Made by a program: the position numbers and the translations under genes. A stretch of DNA of 64,000 bases from Escherichia coli (GTDB taxonomy: Bacteria > Pseudomonadota > Gammaproteobacteria > Enterobacterales > Enterobacteriaceae), in the NCBI RefSeq assembly GCF_050920415.1, contig NZ_CP169309.1; one strand, given 5' to 3'. Numbering within the stretch: position 1 is the first letter of the stretch; each line of letters starts with the position of its first letter. Shown piece by piece: positions 3,085 through 64,000 of this stretch. The notes beneath the pieces were generated by a model that did no database searches, had not been told where the DNA came from, and saw only the letters and a list, made by a program, of their open reading frames with translations.

Positions 3085-5112
3085 ATGCACTATCGCAATG
3101 TGGTTTGTTTGTTGTCTTTTTTAGTTCCGTCAGCGTGGGGATGCTCGCTCGGTGAACCTGATCATAATATTTACCAGAAACAGGGAAAAGGCGTGGTATA
3201 CCTGCGCCCTAATGAAGAGACAAATCTTTCGTTACCGGAAGTAAATTACCAGCGACTGCGTCGTTTACCTGATTTATTCATTGCTCCTGACACCCAGGAC
3301 GATGGGGAAAAAGAACCGCCGTTAAACGACCTTACCACCGATTATATTGATCAGGGCGCATGGGCCTGGTATCCAAATTATGCTTACTTTAGCGATGGCC
3401 GTTTTGTCATTTATGCGGGCAAGATTGTACAAAATCCATCTGGTTATCCACCGGTCGATGTAGCCTCGTTCCATTCATGGGGCGATTTTGCCGTCGATAA
3501 AAACAGCATTTATTACAAAGGCCAACGGACAGATGAAAATGGCGGCAAGCAACGCGTCGATGAAAAAACGCTGCGCAAAGTAGGATTAGGTAGCCGTTGG
3601 ATGCCTGATCGGCTGGGATTGGTGCTACGTGACGCGCATTTTCTTTATATCGATGGGCACCGTTTTGATAACCCAGAGAGTTTTTCCGTGATCGCGCAAA
3701 AATCCTGGGGTCAACAAGGGAAATTCGCTTCAACGTTTTTTCCCTGCATTGCCTACCCCTTTGGCCCGTGGGATATGCTTACCCGCACACGAACAAAGTT
3801 GCTGATCAATGGAGAGCAACTGGATGCCGATCCGGACAATTTTTCTGTCGTTCGCTGGATGCCCGGCACCCTGTTTAGCTGGCGTGATAAACACGGCGAG
3901 CATCGTAAAGTCATTGATCAGGTTCGTTTGGCAAGGAATGAAGATATATCCCGGCAATGTGACAACTTTACGCTGTTAGAAAAAAAGGTGTTCTGGCGCA
4001 AGGGGCCAGATTGTGAGCAGGAAGAATTACCCAGTCTCGACCCGGAGCAGTTTCACCCGATCAGTGACATCGTGGCGCAGTATCAGGACAAGTTGTATGC
4101 AATCAGTAAGACCCCCTTCGGTGAAAATCAGTTGGAGATCATCACCCTGGATAACCCGAATCTGATCATCAATAAACGTTTTAATGCAGGAAGGCATCAT
4201 GGCTATTTACTCACCCGATCAACAAATTGGGACGGACATGAGAAAGACGGTTTACAGGTGTTTGAATCCGTTGGCCCACTGATACTGCTGGACTACCGTG
4301 TGCCGAATGAAGCAGATGCACACCGTGGCAATAACCCGCATTACAAAAAATGGTTTGCTCGCGACGATCGTTACGTTTATGCATTCGATGGTGCGCAGCT
4401 TTGGCGTTACCCTACGCAATATCCCAAAGCGGCACGTATCAAAGCCGCTAAAGACGACTGGCTGAACGTCAGCCTTAGCCAGTTGGACGGTGAGATAATG
4501 AAAGATGGCTCATTTACTCCCACTGGCATCAAGCACACATCCTCTTTAAAACCCGCCAAGGCATACGAAGATGGGGACAATGAATCTTCATTTATCGTAA
4601 ATAAATCGGGAGTAGGCTGGCGAAAAGCGCTTTCACCCGACCTGCAATGGAGTGAGTGGCATTACCTGGAAGGCATTGATCCAAAAAAGTTTCATCTGAT
4701 TACCGAACGTATTGCACAGTACAAAAACCAACTCTACGTCGTCAGGCGCTCGCATTTTGGAGAAGATCGGCTCGAAATCATAGAGTTGGAGTCATCTTTG
4801 CCCATCAAAAATAAACCGATAAATACGGGCAAGGAGCGTCATTACTTTCTGCAAAGTACCCGACAAAAACAGGATGTGCAGGTATTCACCAGCAGCGGTG
4901 CGCTGATAGCAACGGAGCGCTTTGCTTATGACGATAGCTATGTCTACACCTGGATTGACGATCAGCTTTATCGCACACCCTCCCCCTGCCCAGCGAAAAC
5001 ATACGTCAGAGAAAAGAATGTCCGTGAAATTCATAACAGCGACATTATTATTCCGGTGACGGAGGAATCGTGCCGGAACGCAGCAGCAGACGGGCAAACT
5101 TTGAAGCCCTGA
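3085..5112 (+). CDS. Hypothetical secreted/lipoprotein-like repeat protein (675 aa from ATG 3085; 685 aa if the in-frame GTG at 3055 is used); strain-variable gene absent from K-12 at this locus
   Basis: Uninterrupted ~2 kb ORF; AGGA Shine-Dalgarno 8 nt before ATG 3085; N-terminus MHYRNVVCLLSFLVPSAWG|C looks like a signal peptide with possible lipobox Cys; internal ~110-aa tandem duplication and recurring D-x-x-SF...W-G / DKNSIYY / DDRYVY / DDSYVY motifs; host-like codon usage by eye. Confidence 0.75.
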   Translation: MHYRNVVCLLSFLVPSAWGCSLGEPDHNIYQKQGKGVVYLRPNEETNLSLPEVNYQRLRRLPDLFIAPDTQDDGEKEPPLNDLTTDYIDQGAWAWYPNYAYFSDGRFVIYAGKIVQNPSGYPPVDVASFHSWGDFAVDKNSIYYKGQRTDENGGKQRVDEKTLRKVGLGSRWMPDRLGLVLRDAHFLYIDGHRFDNPESFSVIAQKSWGQQGKFASTFFPCIAYPFGPWDMLTRTRTKLLINGEQLDADPDNFSVVRWMPGTLFSWRDKHGEHRKVIDQVRLARNEDISRQCDNFTLLEKKVFWRKGPDCEQEELPSLDPEQFHPISDIVAQYQDKLYAISKTPFGENQLEIITLDNPNLIINKRFNAGRHHGYLLTRSTNWDGHEKDGLQVFESVGPLILLDYRVPNEADAHRGNNPHYKKWFARDDRYVYAFDGAQLWRYPTQYPKAARIKAAKDDWLNVSLSQLDGEIMKDGSFTPTGIKHTSSLKPAKAYEDGDNESSFIVNKSGVGWRKALSPDLQWSEWHYLEGIDPKKFHLITERIAQYKNQLYVVRRSHFGEDRLEIIELESSLPIKNKPINTGKERHYFLQSTRQKQDVQVFTSSGALIATERFAYDDSYVYTWIDDQLYRTPSPCPAKTYVREKNVREIHNSDIIIPVTEESCRNAAADGQTLKP

Positions 5113-55768: not shown

Positions 55769-57310
<1,542 letters not shown>

Positions 57311-57479
57311 AAAAGTTTGATGCTCAAAGAATTAAACTTCGTAATGAATTACGTGTTCACTCTTGAGACTTGGTATTCATTTTTCGTCTTGCGACGTTAA
57401 GAATCCGTATCTTCGAGTGCCCACACAGATTGTCTGATAAATTGTTAAAGAGCAGTGCCGCTTCGCTTTTTCTCAGCGG

Positions 57480-57520
57480 CGCGGGGTGTGCATAATACGC
57501 TTTCCCGCTTCAGAGTCAAG
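57480..57520 (-). promoter_or_regulatory. rrnC P2 promoter
   Basis: Reverse strand reads CTTGACTCTGAAGCGGGAAAGCGTATTATGCACACCCCGC (-35 TTGACT, -10 TATTAT, GC-rich discriminator). Confidence 0.8.
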
Positions 57521-57600
57521 CATTTTTTTGCTTTTCTCTGTCGAGATTCTCAGAAGAATCTCGCTGACCCGGCGGCGTGTTTGCCGTTGTTCCGTGTCAG

Positions 57601-57660
57601 TGGTGGCGCATTATAGGGAGTTATTCCGGCCTGACAAGAGGAAATTTAAAATAATTTCCC
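57601..57660 (-). promoter_or_regulatory. rrnC P1 promoter with upstream A/T-rich UP element
   Basis: Reverse strand reads TTGTCAGGCCGGAATAACTCCCTATAATGCGCCACCACTG (-35 TTGTCA, -10 TATAAT, GCGC discriminator), preceded by aaatttaaaataatttcc; Fis sites expected further upstream (57660-57780) but not individually mapped. Confidence 0.85.
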
Positions 57661-57789
57661 GACCGCGCATTTTTTCAGCAAAAACCCCGTTAATGTGCCA
57701 TAAAACAAGCAATTTGCCGTTTTTGCAACCGTAATCACACTTCCTGGTGGCATACTAAAGAGGAATAAAAAGAAAAAGGAAAATTAGTA

Positions 57790-58482
57790 ATGCCTTTAAG
57801 CGCACAACAGTTAGCTGCACAGAAAAACCTTTCGTATGTTCTGGCTGAGAAGCTGGCGCAACGGATCTTAAAAGGTGAATATGAACCCGGCACCATTTTG
57901 CCTGGTGAGATTGAGCTGGGCGAGCAATTTGGAGTGAGTCGTACAGCGGTACGCGAAGCGGTTAAAACGTTAACGGCAAAAGGGATGGTTTTACCGCGAC
58001 CACGAATTGGTACCCGGGTCATGCCACAATCAAACTGGAATTTTCTTGATCAGGAATTGCTTACCTGGTGGATGACAGAAGAGAACTTTCATCAGGTCAT
58101 CGATCACTTTCTGGTTATGCGTATCTGTCTGGAGCCGCAAGCTTGCCTACTGGCTGCAACGGTTGGCACCGCGGAACAGAAGGCGCATCTCAATACGTTA
58201 ATGGCCGAAATGGTGGCATTAAAAGAGAACTTTCGCCGTGAACGCTGGATTGAGGTCGATATGGCCTGGCATGAGCATATCTATGAAATGAGCGCCAATC
58301 CGTTTTTGACCTCATTCGCCTCGCTCTTCCATTCGGTTTATCACACTTACTTCACGTCAATTACCAGCGACACAGTGATAAAGCTGGATCTGCACCAGGC
58401 GATTGTTGATGCGATTATCCAAAGCGATGGCGACGCGGCATTTAAAGCTTGTCAGGCGCTGCTACGCTCACCTGATAAGTGA
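57790..58482 (+). CDS. yieP: GntR/FadR-family transcriptional regulator YieP
   Basis: 230-aa ORF with N-terminal winged HTH (GTILPGEIELGEQFGVSRTAVREAVKTL) and FCD-like C-terminal domain. Confidence 0.9.
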   Translation: MPLSAQQLAAQKNLSYVLAEKLAQRILKGEYEPGTILPGEIELGEQFGVSRTAVREAVKTLTAKGMVLPRPRIGTRVMPQSNWNFLDQELLTWWMTEENFHQVIDHFLVMRICLEPQACLLAATVGTAEQKAHLNTLMAEMVALKENFRRERWIEVDMAWHEHIYEMSANPFLTSFASLFHSVYHTYFTSITSDTVIKLDLHQAIVDAIIQSDGDAAFKACQALLRSPDK

Positions 58483-58504
58483 CACCCCGATAACAGGACA
58501 TTGA

Positions 58505-59932
58505 ATGAGCGATAAAAAGAAGCGCAGTATGGCGGGTTTGCCGTGGATCGCGGCGATGGCCTTCTTCATGCAGGCACTTGATGCCACTATTCTGAATACC
58601 GCCTTACCCGCAATCGCTCATAGCCTTAATCGTTCTCCTCTCGCGATGCAATCAGCCATCATCAGTTACACGCTGACGGTGGCGATGCTTATTCCGGTAA
58701 GCGGATGGCTAGCCGATCGCTTCGGTACGCGTCGCATATTTACCCTTGCCGTGAGTCTGTTCACATTGGGTTCTCTGGCCTGCGCACTTTCTAACTCGCT
58801 ACCACAGCTGGTTGTCTTCCGGGTTATTCAGGGGATAGGTGGCGCAATGATGATGCCTGTTGCTCGGCTGGCCTTACTGCGTGCTTATCCTCGTAATGAG
58901 CTTCTTCCTGTATTGAATTTTGTCGCCATGCCGGGTCTGGTGGGGCCAATTTTAGGCCCCGTACTTGGCGGCGTGCTGGTCACCTGGGCAACCTGGCACT
59001 GGATATTTTTAATCAATATCCCCATAGGTATTGCCGGCCTTCTTTACGCGCGCAAACATATGCCCAATTTCACCACCGCACGACGCAGATTCGATATCAC
59101 TGGCTTTTTGCTGTTTGGCCTCAGCCTTGTTCTCTTCTCAAGCGGAATAGAGCTATTCGGTGAAAAGATTGTCGCCAGTTGGATTGCCTTGACGGTAATT
59201 GTCACCAGCATCGGGTTACTGCTTCTCTATATTCTCCATGCACGACACACGCTAAACCCATTAATTTCATTAGATTTATTTAAAACCCGCACTTTCTCGA
59301 TCGGTATAGTAGGCAATATTGCAACCCGTCTGGGGACCGGCTGTGTACCGTTCCTTATGCCATTGATGTTACAGGTAGGATTTGGTTATCAGGCGTTTAT
59401 TGCCGGCTGTATGATGGCACCGACAGCATTAGGTTCCATTATTGCAAAATCGATGGTTACCCAAGTCTTACGTCGTCTGGGCTATCGCCATACGTTAGTG
59501 GGGATCACGGTAATTATTGGGCTAATGATCGCTCAGTTCTCTTTGCAATCACCAGCAATGGCGATATGGATGCTGATCTTGCCGTTATTTATATTAGGGA
59601 TGGCTATGTCGACGCAATTTACCGCGATGAATACCATCACACTTGCCGATCTGACCGATGACAACGCCAGCAGCGGTAACAGTGTTCTGGCGGTCACGCA
59701 GCAACTGTCTATCAGTTTAGGCGTTGCTGTAAGTGCGGCCGTCCTTCGCGTTTATGAAGGGATGGAAGGCACAACGACTGTCGAACAATTCCACTATACG
59801 TTTATCACAATGGGCATTATTACTGTTGCTTCAGCAGCAATGTTCATGCTTCTGAAAACAACCGATGGTAATAATTTGATCAAAAGACAGCGTAAATCTA
59901 AGCCGAACCGCGTTCCATCAGAATCGGAGTAA
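58505..59932 (+). CDS. hsrA: MFS transporter HsrA (YieO), putative drug:H+ antiporter
   Basis: 475-aa 14-TM-type MFS ORF immediately after yieP. Confidence 0.9.
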
Positions 59933-60890
59933 GTTGTAATCGTTGTTGCTGAAGGGTCGGCTGGGTTATCCGATGGATGAGTACATCAATCGCCAGCTCC
60001 CCCAGTTCATCTTTCGGTTGATGGATAGTGGTTAATGGTGGCGTCATAAAGCTTGCCAGTTCGATATCGTCATAGCCAATCACCGCGATATCCTGCGGAA
60101 CCTGTAACTCTGCCTGATATAGCGCCTGGTAAACGCCAACAGCCATAGCGTCATTTCCGGTAAAGACGGCCTGAGGACGCAGCGGATGTGATAACAGTTG
60201 GCGCATAGCGTCAAACCCACCGTTAAATTCAAAATCACCCGTAACTTCATAACCATCGGGAATGTTGAGACCAGCTCTCTTCATCGCCGCCCGATAACCT
60301 TCTAACCGCAGGCGCGCCGGTGTTTTATCCAGCGGGCCAGTAATACAAGCAATACGGGTATGACCTTTATCGATCAGATATTGCGTTGCTAAGTCTCCGC
60401 CCAGCAACGAGTTATCCTGAATAAGATCGCTGTCGCCGTCGAACGGTGCCCAGTCCATCATCACGGTAGGCACTGTCGGATAACGTTGCATGATTTCACG
60501 CGAAGGCTGATGCGTTTCGGTGCACAGTAACAGCAAGCCATCAACGCGTTTTTGCATCAGCGTTTCCAGATTGCGATTCATCCGCTGTTCATCGCCTTCG
60601 GTATTGCAAAGGACAAGACTATAACCGCGTTCGAAGCAGCTGCGTTCAACGCCACGCACCAGTTCAGAATAGAAAGGATTGGTACTGGCAGTGATCAACA
60701 TGCCAATAGTATGTGTTTGATTGAGTTTGAGGCTACGCGCCAGAGCTGATGGCGCGTAATTGAGTTCTTTAATCGCCGCTTCAACTTTGGCGGTAATCGC
60801 TTCACTGACGAAGCGATCTTTATTGATAACGTGAGAAACTGTTGAGGTAGAAACGCCCGCCAGGCGGGCAACATCTTTCATTGTAGCCAA
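59898..60890 (-). CDS. rbsR: Ribose operon repressor RbsR (LacI family)
   Basis: 330-aa [58 protein letters not shown]...; 3' end overlaps hsrA 3' end by 35 bp. Confidence 0.95.
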
Positions 60891-60893
60891 GCG

Positions 60894-61823
60894 TCACCTC
60901 TGCCTGTCTAAAAATGCGTCGATCTCTTCACGCCACGGTACGGAAGGTTGTGCGCCTTTACGTGTTACGGCAATCGCAGCGGCGGCATGGGCAAAACGAA
61001 TCGCCTCTGGCAATGGTTTTTCTTCCAGCAACGCCGTGATTAACGCGCCGTTAAAAGTATCTCCGGCAGCAATGGTATCGACAGCCTGCACCCGGAATCC
61101 AGGAACGCGCTGACCTTCACCATTCACGCTAGCCCACACACCACGACTTCCTAAGGTGATCAGTACGGTACGGATACCTTTTTCATGCAGTACCTGCGCG
61201 GCCTTCGCTGCATCTTCATCATTTTCAACGCGAATACCGGTGAGCTTTTCTGCTTCCGTTTCATTTGGCGTAATAATGTCCACCAGAGCCAGCAGTTCGT
61301 CAGGAAGTTCACGAGCCGGAGCTGGGTTAAGCGCAACGATAGTCTTATTTTGATGGGCGATTTTCGCCGCTGCCATCACACTTTCGAGTGGTGATTCCAG
61401 CTGCATTAATAATGCCGATGCGTTAGCAATACGCTCACGTTGCGCCTCCACCAACGCAGGGGAAAGGGCTGCGTTAGCGCCGGCATGAATACCAATGACA
61501 TTCTCACCTTCGCCATTAACAAAAATCAGCGCCACACCTGTTGATTCGCCTTTGATCACGCTCACCGGAGAAATATCGATGTTATCAGTGGCGAGCTGCT
61601 GGCGAACGCTCTCACCAATACTGTCATCACCCGTACAGGCAATAAACGCGATATTCGCACCGCTACGCCCAGCAGCCACAGCCTGATTAGCGCCTTTGCC
61701 GCCAAATGCAACCTGATAGTGATTACCGGTTACGGTTTCGCCTGGAGTAGGAAAAGATTGAAGATTAAGAATGTGGTCAGCATTAATGCTGCCAAGAACA
61801 ACGAGGCTGCCTGCGTTTTGCAT
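60894..61823 (-). CDS. rbsK: Ribokinase RbsK
   Basis: ORF contains MQNAGSLVVLGSINADHILNLQSFPTPGETVTGNHYQVAFGGKGANQAVAAG...; start set to give 309 aa. Confidence 0.95.
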   Translation of the reverse strand: MQNAGSLVVLGSINADHILNLQSFPTPGETVTGNHYQVAFGGKGANQAVAAGRSGANIAFIACTGDDSIGESVRQQLATDNIDISPVSVIKGESTGVALIFVNGEGENVIGIHAGANAALSPALVEAQRERIANASALLMQLESPLESVMAAAKIAHQNKTIVALNPAPARELPDELLALVDIITPNETEAEKLTGIRVENDEDAAKAAQVLHEKGIRTVLITLGSRGVWASVNGEGQRVPGFRVQAVDTIAAGDTFNGALITALLEEKPLPEAIRFAHAAAAIAVTRKGAQPSVPWREEIDAFLDRQR

Positions 61824-61948
61824 ATTCGGGATGTCCATAAAATGCGCCACCGTGTTAGGGTGGCGCGTGCCCTGCTTTTCTTTATTTTACACGTTCATCT
61901 GTCGATGACGTATTTATGTCACCATCAGGTCATACAACCTGATTAAAA

Positions 61949-62839
61949 CTACTGCTTAACAACCAGTTTCAGATCAACCGGATACTTAGCCTGAACTTTC
62001 TCGCCTTTCAGCACTTTATCGGCGGTTTCGACGCCTTTCGCGCCAATCTGATCGGGTAGCTGAGCGATAGTCGCTGCTAGTTTGCCATCATTCACCGCTT
62101 TTTCGCCATCCGGTGTACCGTCAAATCCGACGACCATCACATCCGATTTACCAGCAGTTTGCAGTGCGCGCAGCGCGCCCAGCGCCATTTCATCATTCTG
62201 CGCGAACACAGCCTGAACATCCGGATGAGCGGTCAACAGGTTCTGCATTACGTTCAAACCTTTGGTGCGGTCAAAGTCCGCTGGCTGGCTGGCAAGAACA
62301 TTAAACTTGTGAGCAGCAACGGCCTGCTGGAAACCTTCGCCACGCTCACGAGCTGCGGAGGTACCGGCAATGCCTTGCAGCTCGATAACTTTGGCACCTT
62401 CACCCGCTTTCTTCGCGATATAATCACCCGCGATTTTGCCGCCCAGTACGTTATCAGAAGCAATGTGGCTCACCACTTCACCTTTCGTGGCCTGGCGGTC
62501 AAGAGTGATAACCGGAATGTTCGCCTGGTTAGCCATCTTCACAGCATTACCCACTGCGTCGGAGTCGGTCGGGTTAATCAGCAGAATTTTGGTGCCGCGA
62601 ACAGTTAAGTCCTGCACGTTCGCCAGCTCTTTCGCCGGATTGTTCTGGGAGTCCAGCACCACCAGGTTATAGCCGAGTTTATCCGCCTCTTTCTGCGCAC
62701 CATCTTTCAGCGATACAAAGAACGGGTTGTTAAGCGTGGAAACCACCAGCGCGATGGTGTCTTTTGCCATCGCATTCGCACTGACGGTGGCGCTTAGCGC
62801 AACAGCGGAAACCAGGGTAGCCAGTTTTTTCATGTTCAT
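61949..62839 (-). CDS. rbsB: Periplasmic ribose-binding protein RbsB
   Basis: ORF contains [78 protein letters not shown]... Confidence 0.96.
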
Positions 62840-62863
62840 ATTCAAGATGTCCTGTAGTCGTTA

Positions 62864-63829
62864 TTACTGTTTTTTGTTGTCTACCAGCACCGCCAGCAAA
62901 ATCACCACCGCTTTGACGATCATCTGGTAATAGGAGGAAACACCTAACAAATTCAATCCATTATTAAGGAAGCCAAGAATTAATGCGCCGATCAACGTCC
63001 CAACAATGCGACCTTTTCCGCCCGCCAGACTCGTACCGCCCAGAACCACCGCAGCAATTGCATCCAGCTCATAGCCAGTCCCCGCCGTGGGTTGTGCGGA
63101 GGAGAGACGCGCCACTTCAATGATCCCGGCCAGCGATGCCAGCAGACCACAAAGAGAATAGACGATGATTTTGATTTTATTGACGTTGATACCAGAAAGA
63201 CGCGTAGCCGCTTCGTTGCCGCCCAGCGCGTAGATGTAACGCCCCAAACGTGTGTGATGCAGCATGTACCAGGCCGCGAGGAACACAATCCCCATGATCC
63301 AGACTGGCGTCGGTACGCCCAGCGGACGACCAATACCAAACCAGCCGAACAGATCGGCGTTCTCAGTAAAGCCGGTATTCACTGGGCTACCGTTGGTATA
63401 AACCATGGTCACGCCGCGCAGTAAAAGCATCATAACCAGCGTAGCGATAAACGCCTGGACGCGACCTTTCGCTACAATCACCCCGGTTACCGCACCAATA
63501 GCGGCACCTAACGCGAGAGCGGCAGCGACAGCCACCAGCGCATTGACTTCAATGCCGACGATAGATGCAGCTACTGCGCCAGTCAGCGCCAACAGAGAAC
63601 CTACTGACAAGTCGATGCCCGACGTCAGGATCACCAGCGTCATCCCGACCGCCATAATGGCATTCACCGAGGTTTGCTGGAGAATATTGAATAAGTTATT
63701 GATGGTGAAAAAGTTCGGGCTTAACGTCGAGACAATCGCGATCAGCACCAGCAGAGCGATAAGCGATTTCTGCTCCATCAGCCACGCTTTCGTGAAATAA
63801 CGGCGACCAGAGACAGTCTGGGTTGTCAT
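62864..63829 (-). CDS. rbsC: Ribose ABC transporter permease RbsC
   Basis: 321-aa polytopic membrane ORF upstream of rbsB. Confidence 0.95.
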   Translation of the reverse strand: MTTQTVSGRRYFTKAWLMEQKSLIALLVLIAIVSTLSPNFFTINNLFNILQQTSVNAIMAVGMTLVILTSGIDLSVGSLLALTGAVAASIVGIEVNALVAVAAALALGAAIGAVTGVIVAKGRVQAFIATLVMMLLLRGVTMVYTNGSPVNTGFTENADLFGWFGIGRPLGVPTPVWIMGIVFLAAWYMLHHTRLGRYIYALGGNEAATRLSGINVNKIKIIVYSLCGLLASLAGIIEVARLSSAQPTAGTGYELDAIAAVVLGGTSLAGGKGRIVGTLIGALILGFLNNGLNLLGVSSYYQMIVKAVVILLAVLVDNKKQ

Positions 63830-63833
63830 TTTT

Positions 63834-64000
63834 TTACTCCTGATTCACGCGATTAAGCTTGCCCACAGCGGCAGCCATTAACACTTCCTGGGTGGCCTGC
63901 TCACGAGTAAATTCCCCGCTGAGATGCCCTTCATGCATGACGATGATGCGATCGCTCATGCCTAATACTTCTGGCATCTCCGATGACACCAGAATGATGC
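63834..64000 (-). CDS. rbsA: Ribose ABC transporter ATP-binding protein RbsA, C-terminal part only (5' end beyond window)
   Basis: Reverse-strand frame ends ...[37 protein letters not shown], 5 nt before the rbsC ATG. Confidence 0.85.

Follow-up and report, generated by a model that had tools for sequence, protein, structure and literature searches.

The window analyzed here, a 64,000-nucleotide stretch of an Escherichia coli genome (contig NZ_CP169309.1 of RefSeq assembly GCF_050920415.1), carries, in this order, rrnC on the minus strand, yieP and hsrA on the plus strand and the rbs operon on the minus strand, the latter being represented in the part examined by rbsR, rbsK, rbsB, rbsC, and the end of rbsA (Table 1). 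The gene yieP lies upstream of hsrA on the same strand at a spacing of 22 nt, and both genes probably form one operon. The genes hsrA and rbsR converge and share 35 bp at the 3′-ends of their coding sequences, as had been proposed by a sequence-only reading of this DNA and was confirmed by the sequence itself, the list of open reading frames and the RefSeq annotation. The figure of 35 bp includes both stop codons, namely TAA at 59930-59932 (+) for hsrA and TAG at 59898-59900 (-) for rbsR, and amino acids are specified by both strands over 29 nt. Read in its own direction, hsrA ends with the codons ...AAG CCG AAC CGC GTT CCA TCA GAA TCG GAG TAA and rbsR with ...ATT CTG ATG GAA CGC GGT TCG GCT TAG. 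The two frames are arranged in phase (123:132), with hsrA codon position 1 facing rbsR position 1, position 2 facing position 3 and position 3 facing position 2, which is the commonest phase among convergent overlaps of at least 5 nt (49%; PMC2174442).

Table 1. Positions in the window of the genes and features discussed in the text.
Feature	Position	Strand	Description and source
yieP	57790..58482	+	GntR/FadR-family regulator; open reading frame, Pfam GntR and FCD, annotation
hsrA (yieO) coding sequence	58505..59932	+	475 aa, ATG start; open reading frame list and annotation
Convergent hsrA/rbsR coding overlap	59898..59932	both	35 bp; from sequence
p19-captured RNase III duplex	59897..59920	both	22 bp, 2-nt 3′ overhangs; PMC7373196 Table S3
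Latent CTAA tetramer	59898..59901	both	+1 frame would end hsrA with a 4-nt stop/stop overlap
HsrA residues 466-475	59900..59929	+	C-terminal extension; antisense of rbsR codons 321-330
Putative Rho loading/termination zone of hsrA read-through RNA	60033..60194	+	antisense to rbsR
rbsR coding sequence	60890..59898	-	330 aa, TTG start; open reading frame list and NCBIfam equivalog
Early-rbsR Rho-dependent region	~60730	-	PMC7815308 Supplementary files 1-3
Term-seq 3′ end	60792	-	98 nt into rbsR, 4 nt after hairpin 60817-60796; PMC7815308
Intrinsic terminator/attenuator between rbsB and rbsK	61839..61866	-	8-pair stem (7 G-C), then ATTTTAT

Both reading frames are well anchored by homology. HsrA is a DHA2-type MFS efflux transporter with a Pfam MFS_1 match over residues 17-406 (E = 6e-47) and an alignment to NCBIfam NF007799, the MdtD/HsrA subfamily, over residues 13-465 (457.7 bits), by which its frame is fixed up to residue 465. 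Since the subfamily profile covers residues 13-465 alone, the last 10 residues of HsrA are, judged from these profile comparisons, a lineage-specific add-on. Neither the wider family nor related genera have this tail, and RbsR keeps its frame unchanged, as in C-terminal extensions that arise by overprinting. RbsR, the LacI-family repressor of the ribose operon, matches NCBIfam equivalog NF007743 over its whole length (1-330/330, 697 bits) and has the same sequence as the chain of 330 residues in PDB 9ny7. PurR can be aligned to RbsR through residue 329, and the overlapped rbsR codons therefore belong to the conserved LacI-family core. Apart from this, all E. coli genomes looked at carry the RefSeq/PGAP label 'mdtD: multidrug transporter subunit MdtD' for 58505-59932, a name that derives from NF007799, whose cutoff of 426 bits HsrA passes narrowly with its 457.7 bits. 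The gene is hsrA/yieO, which lies beside yieP, and not mdtD of the mdtABCD-baeSR operon.

With regard to the extent of the overlap, a frame analysis revealed that a plus-strand reading entering the end of rbsR would overlap it by 4, 35 or 42 nt, depending on which of the three frames is used. Stops in the frame of hsrA occur on the antisense strand of rbsR once per 12.7 codons on average, so that a run of 11 codons is typical and the overlap length of 35 carries no special meaning.

Within E. coli the junction is highly conserved. The sequence-only reading had regarded the overlap as probably the normal arrangement and had proposed a comparison with the reference annotation; in line with this, the identical 35-bp overlap is annotated by RefSeq/PGAP both in a K-12-type genome and in a strain that is 100% identical to the window. 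Of 5,426 complete E. coli genomes, 5,424 gave a match to a 2.6-kb query, with a coverage of at least 80% in 5,402 of them, and for the 95 bp centered on the overlap the identity was at least 99% in 3,636 of 5,414 records and 95-99% in the remainder. The region 58400-61000 as a whole is about 98% identical to most E. coli genomes, with at least 99% identity in 6 records only and 100% in one strain, MFDS1022581 (Korean food), which implies that the window comes from a less commonly sequenced E. coli lineage. A disrupted version of the junction is found in E. coli 1162C (NZ_CP051659.1; locus 3557-4805, approximately window 59930), where the IS3-family element ISEc52 is inserted in the overlap, and hsrA ('mdtD') and rbsR are both annotated as pseudogenes without C-termini. 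A single insertion at this place thus disables two genes.

The comparison was extended to 80 Enterobacteriaceae loci, with one genome per species. In all 80, hsrA and rbsR are convergent and abutting, and the junctions fall into classes with either a gap of 1-2 nt or an overlap of 4, 9, 24, 35, or 53 nt. The 35-nt overlap is present in Escherichia, Salmonella, Citrobacter, Enterobacter, Leclercia, and Intestinirhabdus, the 53-nt overlap in Lelliottia and Huaxiibacter, the 24- and 9-nt overlaps in Kosakonia and allies, the 4-nt overlap in many genera including Franconibacter, Siccibacter, Buttiauxella, Trabulsiella, Yokenella, Pluralibacter, and Pseudescherichia, and the 1-2 nt gap in Kluyvera, Phytobacter, and Atlantibacter; 39 of the 80 species loci have a 35- or 53-nt overlap. 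Alignments of the protein tails and of the junctions showed that the RbsR end ...LTPxLxxRGS[AV]* and the position of the rbsR stop are constant, and that in HsrA a variable tail comes after the conserved core, whose last residues are ...KDGRNLIKE[RK]H. In genera whose overlap is at most 4 nt, HsrA ends at about ...KDGRNLIKERH(K..) and lacks the E. coli-type tail. The 53-nt genomes (Lelliottia, Huaxiibacter, and one metagenome-assembled genome labeled Enterobacter) have additionally lost the rbsR stop and carry 6 extra RbsR residues (S/L-A-G-G-x-L), which are read on the antisense strand of hsrA. In the window, loss of the rbsR TAG would likewise add 6 codons, giving exactly the 53-nt class. 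One further enterobacterial hsrA-rbsR locus was encountered under the name 'Chryseobacterium sp. 18061' (CACSKA010000004.1); it hardly differs from the locus of 'Citrobacter sp. 18056', which belongs to the same project, and the assembly is probably mislabeled or contaminated.

Regarding the history of the junction, the 4-nt class in many genera uses TTAA or CTAA at the junction, and the distance from the conserved hsrA core to the rbsR stop leaves a remainder of 2, 1 and 0 on division by 3 in the 4-nt, 35-nt and 9-nt classes, respectively. As these distances differ modulo 3, the classes appear to be separated by frame changes in the A-rich hsrA tail and not by stop mutations alone. In a midpoint-rooted neighbor-joining tree of the single gene rbsR, restricted to Enterobacteriaceae and calculated with the overlapped end left out, sequences of the 4-nt class are spread over the tree as a paraphyletic assemblage. 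Those of the 35-nt class fall into two cohesive clusters, one of which contains the 53-nt class as a nested group, and the 9- and 24-nt classes make up one clade. The distribution of the classes, this tree and the family profile favor the 4-nt junction as the ancestral state and the 35-nt junction as the derived one.

Next to its distribution, the overlap was analyzed for signs of constraint on both coding strands, using the mean pairwise diversity at rbsR third codon positions in 11-codon windows. For the 39 sequences that overlap by 35 or 53 nt, diversity over the last 11 codons amounted to 0.251, which is below all 129 upstream 11-codon windows in the same set (minimum 0.305, mean 0.461). 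For the 41 sequences with an overlap of at most 24 nt, the corresponding value was 0.488, with a mean of 0.490. The conserved rbsR sites are those that determine, in the HsrA tail, the residues K, P, P, S, and E as well as the stop. The respective Leu codon of rbsR is CTT or CTC in all 39 overlap-bearing sequences and never CTG or CTA, by which the hsrA stop is kept, and the Thr codon is ACT in 38 of 39; in the group with at most 24 nt, Leu is encoded by CTG, CTC, or CTT and Thr by ACG, ACC, or ACA. Given this reduced synonymous diversity, both frames appear to be translated across the overlap in the overlap-bearing lineages. The same comparison, for a sample of 11 codons, speaks for translation of hsrA up to the annotated stop and for some purifying selection on its tail, with the reservation that the constraint on synonymous rbsR sites might conceivably be exerted on the RNA instead of on the HsrA tail.

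These data bear on the question whether the HsrA tail (K-P...P-S...E) is functional and whether selection on it fixes the 35-nt form. The strong conservation of rbsR synonymous sites opposite hsrA second positions, seen in the overlap-bearing lineages only, and the retention of the hsrA stop position in 39 of 39 overlap-bearing sequences would fit such a function. However, the test spans 11 codons only, several residues of the tail vary freely (N/S/T, R/H/P, E/K, S/Q/P), other genera have tails of quite different sequence and length, and the tail lies outside the transporter family profile. A functional tail that fixes the 35-nt form is regarded as less likely than not. The idea that the overlap is an annotation artefact, with one of the stops mis-called or one of the genes untranslated to its end, was rejected and is given practically no weight: the two annotated stops are both the first to occur in frames fixed by strong homology, which for hsrA secures the frame to residue 465, PDB 9ny7 comprises the same 330 residues of RbsR, and the dual-coding signature is present. 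Accordingly, hsrA and rbsR are a convergent overlapping protein-coding pair, i.e., genuine open reading frames on opposite strands with shared 3′-ends, conservation and constraint.

In addition to the coding sequences, the region was analyzed for signals at which the two transcripts might end. In a scan for intrinsic terminators, neither strand had a stem-loop followed by a T-run up to a distance of 400 nt from the junction, the nearest terminator-like match being located at 59516-59537 (+), upstream of the hsrA stop. The predicted folds of the junction RNAs of both strands have the same energies as shuffled controls (z = 0.00 and 0.04), and no Term-seq 3′ end was reported at the junction (Adams et al., 2021; PMC7815308). 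Convergent genes of E. coli are often separated by bidirectional terminators (bioRxiv 10.1101/2022.10.23.513370), and a hidden intrinsic one in or beside the overlap might end both transcripts. A G+C-rich stem-loop with flanking A-tract and T-tract was, however, not found at the junction, and together with the results of the terminator scan, the fold analysis and the Term-seq data this makes such a terminator very improbable. Without a spacer or a hairpin terminator, both transcripts have to end within the respective partner gene.

For hsrA, published data point to the place where this may happen. Window positions were related to K-12 coordinates as window = 3999117 - K-12 coordinate. A Rho termination region termed 'antisense rbsR' was reported at K-12 3938923 (-) with a Rho score of 2.78 and p = 7.6e-6 (PMC7815308, Supplementary file 2). 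This position maps to approximately 60194 (+) in the window, 262 nt past the hsrA stop, at a resolution of windows of about 800 nt and with modest significance. In 78-nt windows, C/G ratios of 1.2-1.5 were determined for the stretch 100-240 nt past the hsrA stop, just upstream of the mapped Rho position, and a ratio of 2.25 for 280-380 nt, an enrichment of C over G that is modest and of a kind that is common on the antisense strand of genes.

For transcripts from the rbs side, no 3′ end of a full-length rbsR mRNA was reported by Adams et al. (PMC7815308), and the signals found lie further upstream. The terminator between rbsB and rbsK has the sequence GCGCCACC-CTAACAC-GGTGGCGC followed by ATTTTAT (feature within 61839-61874, stem 61866-61844), and the very abundant Term-seq 3′ end at K-12 3937278 (PMC7815308) maps into its U-tract (61839, -). 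This terminator limits how much transcription arrives at rbsK and rbsR. The Rho region and the hairpin-associated 3′ end within the first 160 nt of rbsR suggest polarity or attenuation at the entry to this gene. Owing to the rbsB-rbsK terminator and the early-rbsR ends, much of the rbs transcription never reaches the overlap. As to the neighboring gene starts, the TTG start of rbsR is located 3 nt after the rbsK stop, and about 15 nt separate the end of the rbsB-rbsK terminator from the annotated ATG of rbsK (61823). The open reading frame list extends rbsK to a GTG at 61850, inside the terminator hairpin, which is probably not a real start.

Scans for further elements gave no result at the overlap, neither for promoters (junction and 57300-62000, nothing relevant at the overlap) nor for Rfam families (57300-64000, no match in or near the overlap). 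At the other end of the region scanned, 57432-57682 (-) gave a sub-threshold Rfam match to the Yersinia sRNA Ysr197 (78 bits versus a gathering score of 167, E = 1e-17). This region lies upstream of the rrnC 16S gene and contains two strong sigma-70-like promoters at 57637-57610 and 57519-57492, presumably rrnC P1 and P2, and the Ysr197 'sRNA' family probably models the rrn leader.

Full-length mRNAs of hsrA and rbsR are complementary at their 3′-ends. That the two mRNAs would necessarily be antisense there and might form duplexes sensitive to RNase III had also been put forward by the sequence-only reading; the first statement follows from the sequence, and both have counterparts in published surveys. 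As a further possible consequence, that reading had named transcriptional interference. Using ExcludonFinder, rbsR-hsrA was listed among 165 convergent excludons present in at least 50% of 58 MG1655 transcriptomes (PMC12288877, Table 1). With overlapping coding sequences, any full-length mRNAs satisfy the coverage criterion of this program. Furthermore, Huang et al. (2020; PMC7373196, Table S3) reported under 'hsrA rbsR' a perfectly paired 22-bp RNase III product, AUGGAACGCGGUUCGGCUUAGA / UAAGCCGAACCGCGUUCCAUCA, which was captured with p19 from both strands and was represented by 158 and 232 reads, corresponding to 1.85 and 2.72 RPM. Its strands match the window exactly, the rbsR-sense strand at 59918..59897 (-) and the hsrA-sense strand at 59899..59920 (+). 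The duplex was assigned to the exponential-phase sample, as the ratio of reads to RPM fits that sheet. Its abundance is near the listing threshold of 1 RPM, in a data set in which double-stranded RNA reaches 1 RPM or more for 87% of genes (PMC7373196).

These observations raise the possibility of a functional convergent excludon, in which induction of rbs would lower hsrA and vice versa, through collision of polymerases and cleavage by RNase III. The pair belongs to the ExcludonFinder core set, an RNase III duplex was captured in the overlap, pairs of this kind show higher synteny (PMC12288877), and the convergence without a spacer, kept in 80 of 80 species, could reflect selection for coupling. 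On the other hand, the duplex was recovered at 1.9-2.7 RPM only, overlapping coding sequences suffice for the coverage criterion, overlap length and phase vary freely between genera, most rbs transcription stops earlier, at the rbsB-rbsK terminator and in early rbsR, and ribose repression and HsrA have no known functional link. Taking both sides into account, we consider reciprocal regulation of this type unlikely. The chances are slimmer still for a combined scenario, in which ribose-induced rbs transcription would tune yieP-hsrA via Rho, RNase III and collision and the HsrA tail would be functional as well.

All these observations make it quite probable that hsrA/rbsR is an ordinary, though genuine, case of two translated genes overlapping tail to tail, with double-stranded RNA as a by-product. 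The ancestral junction would have been the common 4-nt CTAA/TTAA stop-on-stop overlap. A length change of one base in the A-rich, Lys/Arg-encoding tail of hsrA may then have shifted its frame past the stop tetramer, whereupon translation of hsrA would have continued for about 10 more codons along the antisense strand of rbsR, to the first stop of the new frame. The new HsrA tail seems to have been kept since, with the synonymous sites of rbsR beneath it constrained. Each transcript would end inside the partner gene, that of hsrA probably via Rho about 260 nt into antisense rbsR, as suggested by published bicyclomycin data, and the complementary 3′-ends would form a little double-stranded RNA that is cut by RNase III. 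As both genes are presumably weakly transcribed here, duplex formation and polymerase collisions would be by-products that hardly affect regulation, if at all. For the 3′ extension of hsrA, the best explanation is that it is neutral or weakly selected.

The overlap as such is already known from the reference annotation and from genome-wide surveys of transcript overlaps and of RNase III-dependent double-stranded RNA. What the comparative work adds is a small example of how a convergent overlap may arise and then become constrained by dual coding, with a frame change past a shared stop tetramer placing new tail codons on the antisense strand of the partner gene. Its importance is low, and only a demonstrated reciprocal regulatory effect would raise it.

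Among known systems, the closest resemblance is to the convergent overlaps described by Lillo and Krakauer (2007; PMC2174442), who counted 58 convergent coding overlaps in E. coli, with tetramers of the CTAA type as the modal form, and attributed such overlaps to stop loss and 3′ extension (see also PMC2716372). As in their cases, two real genes share their 3′-ends in phase (123:132) after extension past a stop, and any terminator must lie inside the partner gene. The pair departs from them in no essential respect, although the hsrA stop was apparently bypassed by a frame change of one base and not by a point mutation of the stop codon. The 4-nt stop/stop overlaps (CTAA, TTAA, CTAG, TTAG) occur at this same junction in many Enterobacteriaceae genera, and the tetramer CTAA persists in E. 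coli at 59898-59901, but hsrA of E. coli reads it in another frame and ends 31 nt later. Excludons were originally described in Listeria. With the convergent excludons of more recent work (PMC12288877), where the pair is listed by name, rbsR-hsrA has in common the adjacency on opposite strands, the overlapping transcripts and the recovered double-stranded RNA of RNase III type, but its overlap is forced by the overlapping coding sequences and not by long UTRs. Finally, Conway et al. (2014; PMC4161252) reported 3′ overlaps, with a mean length of 286 nt, for 276 of 370 convergent operons of E. coli. The read-through of hsrA, which would extend about 260 nt into its neighbor and be ended by Rho like the antisense read-through RNAs of Adams et al. 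(PMC7815308), is of a typical size in this comparison, with the difference that hsrA read-through leaks past no intergenic terminator, as no intergenic region exists between the two genes.
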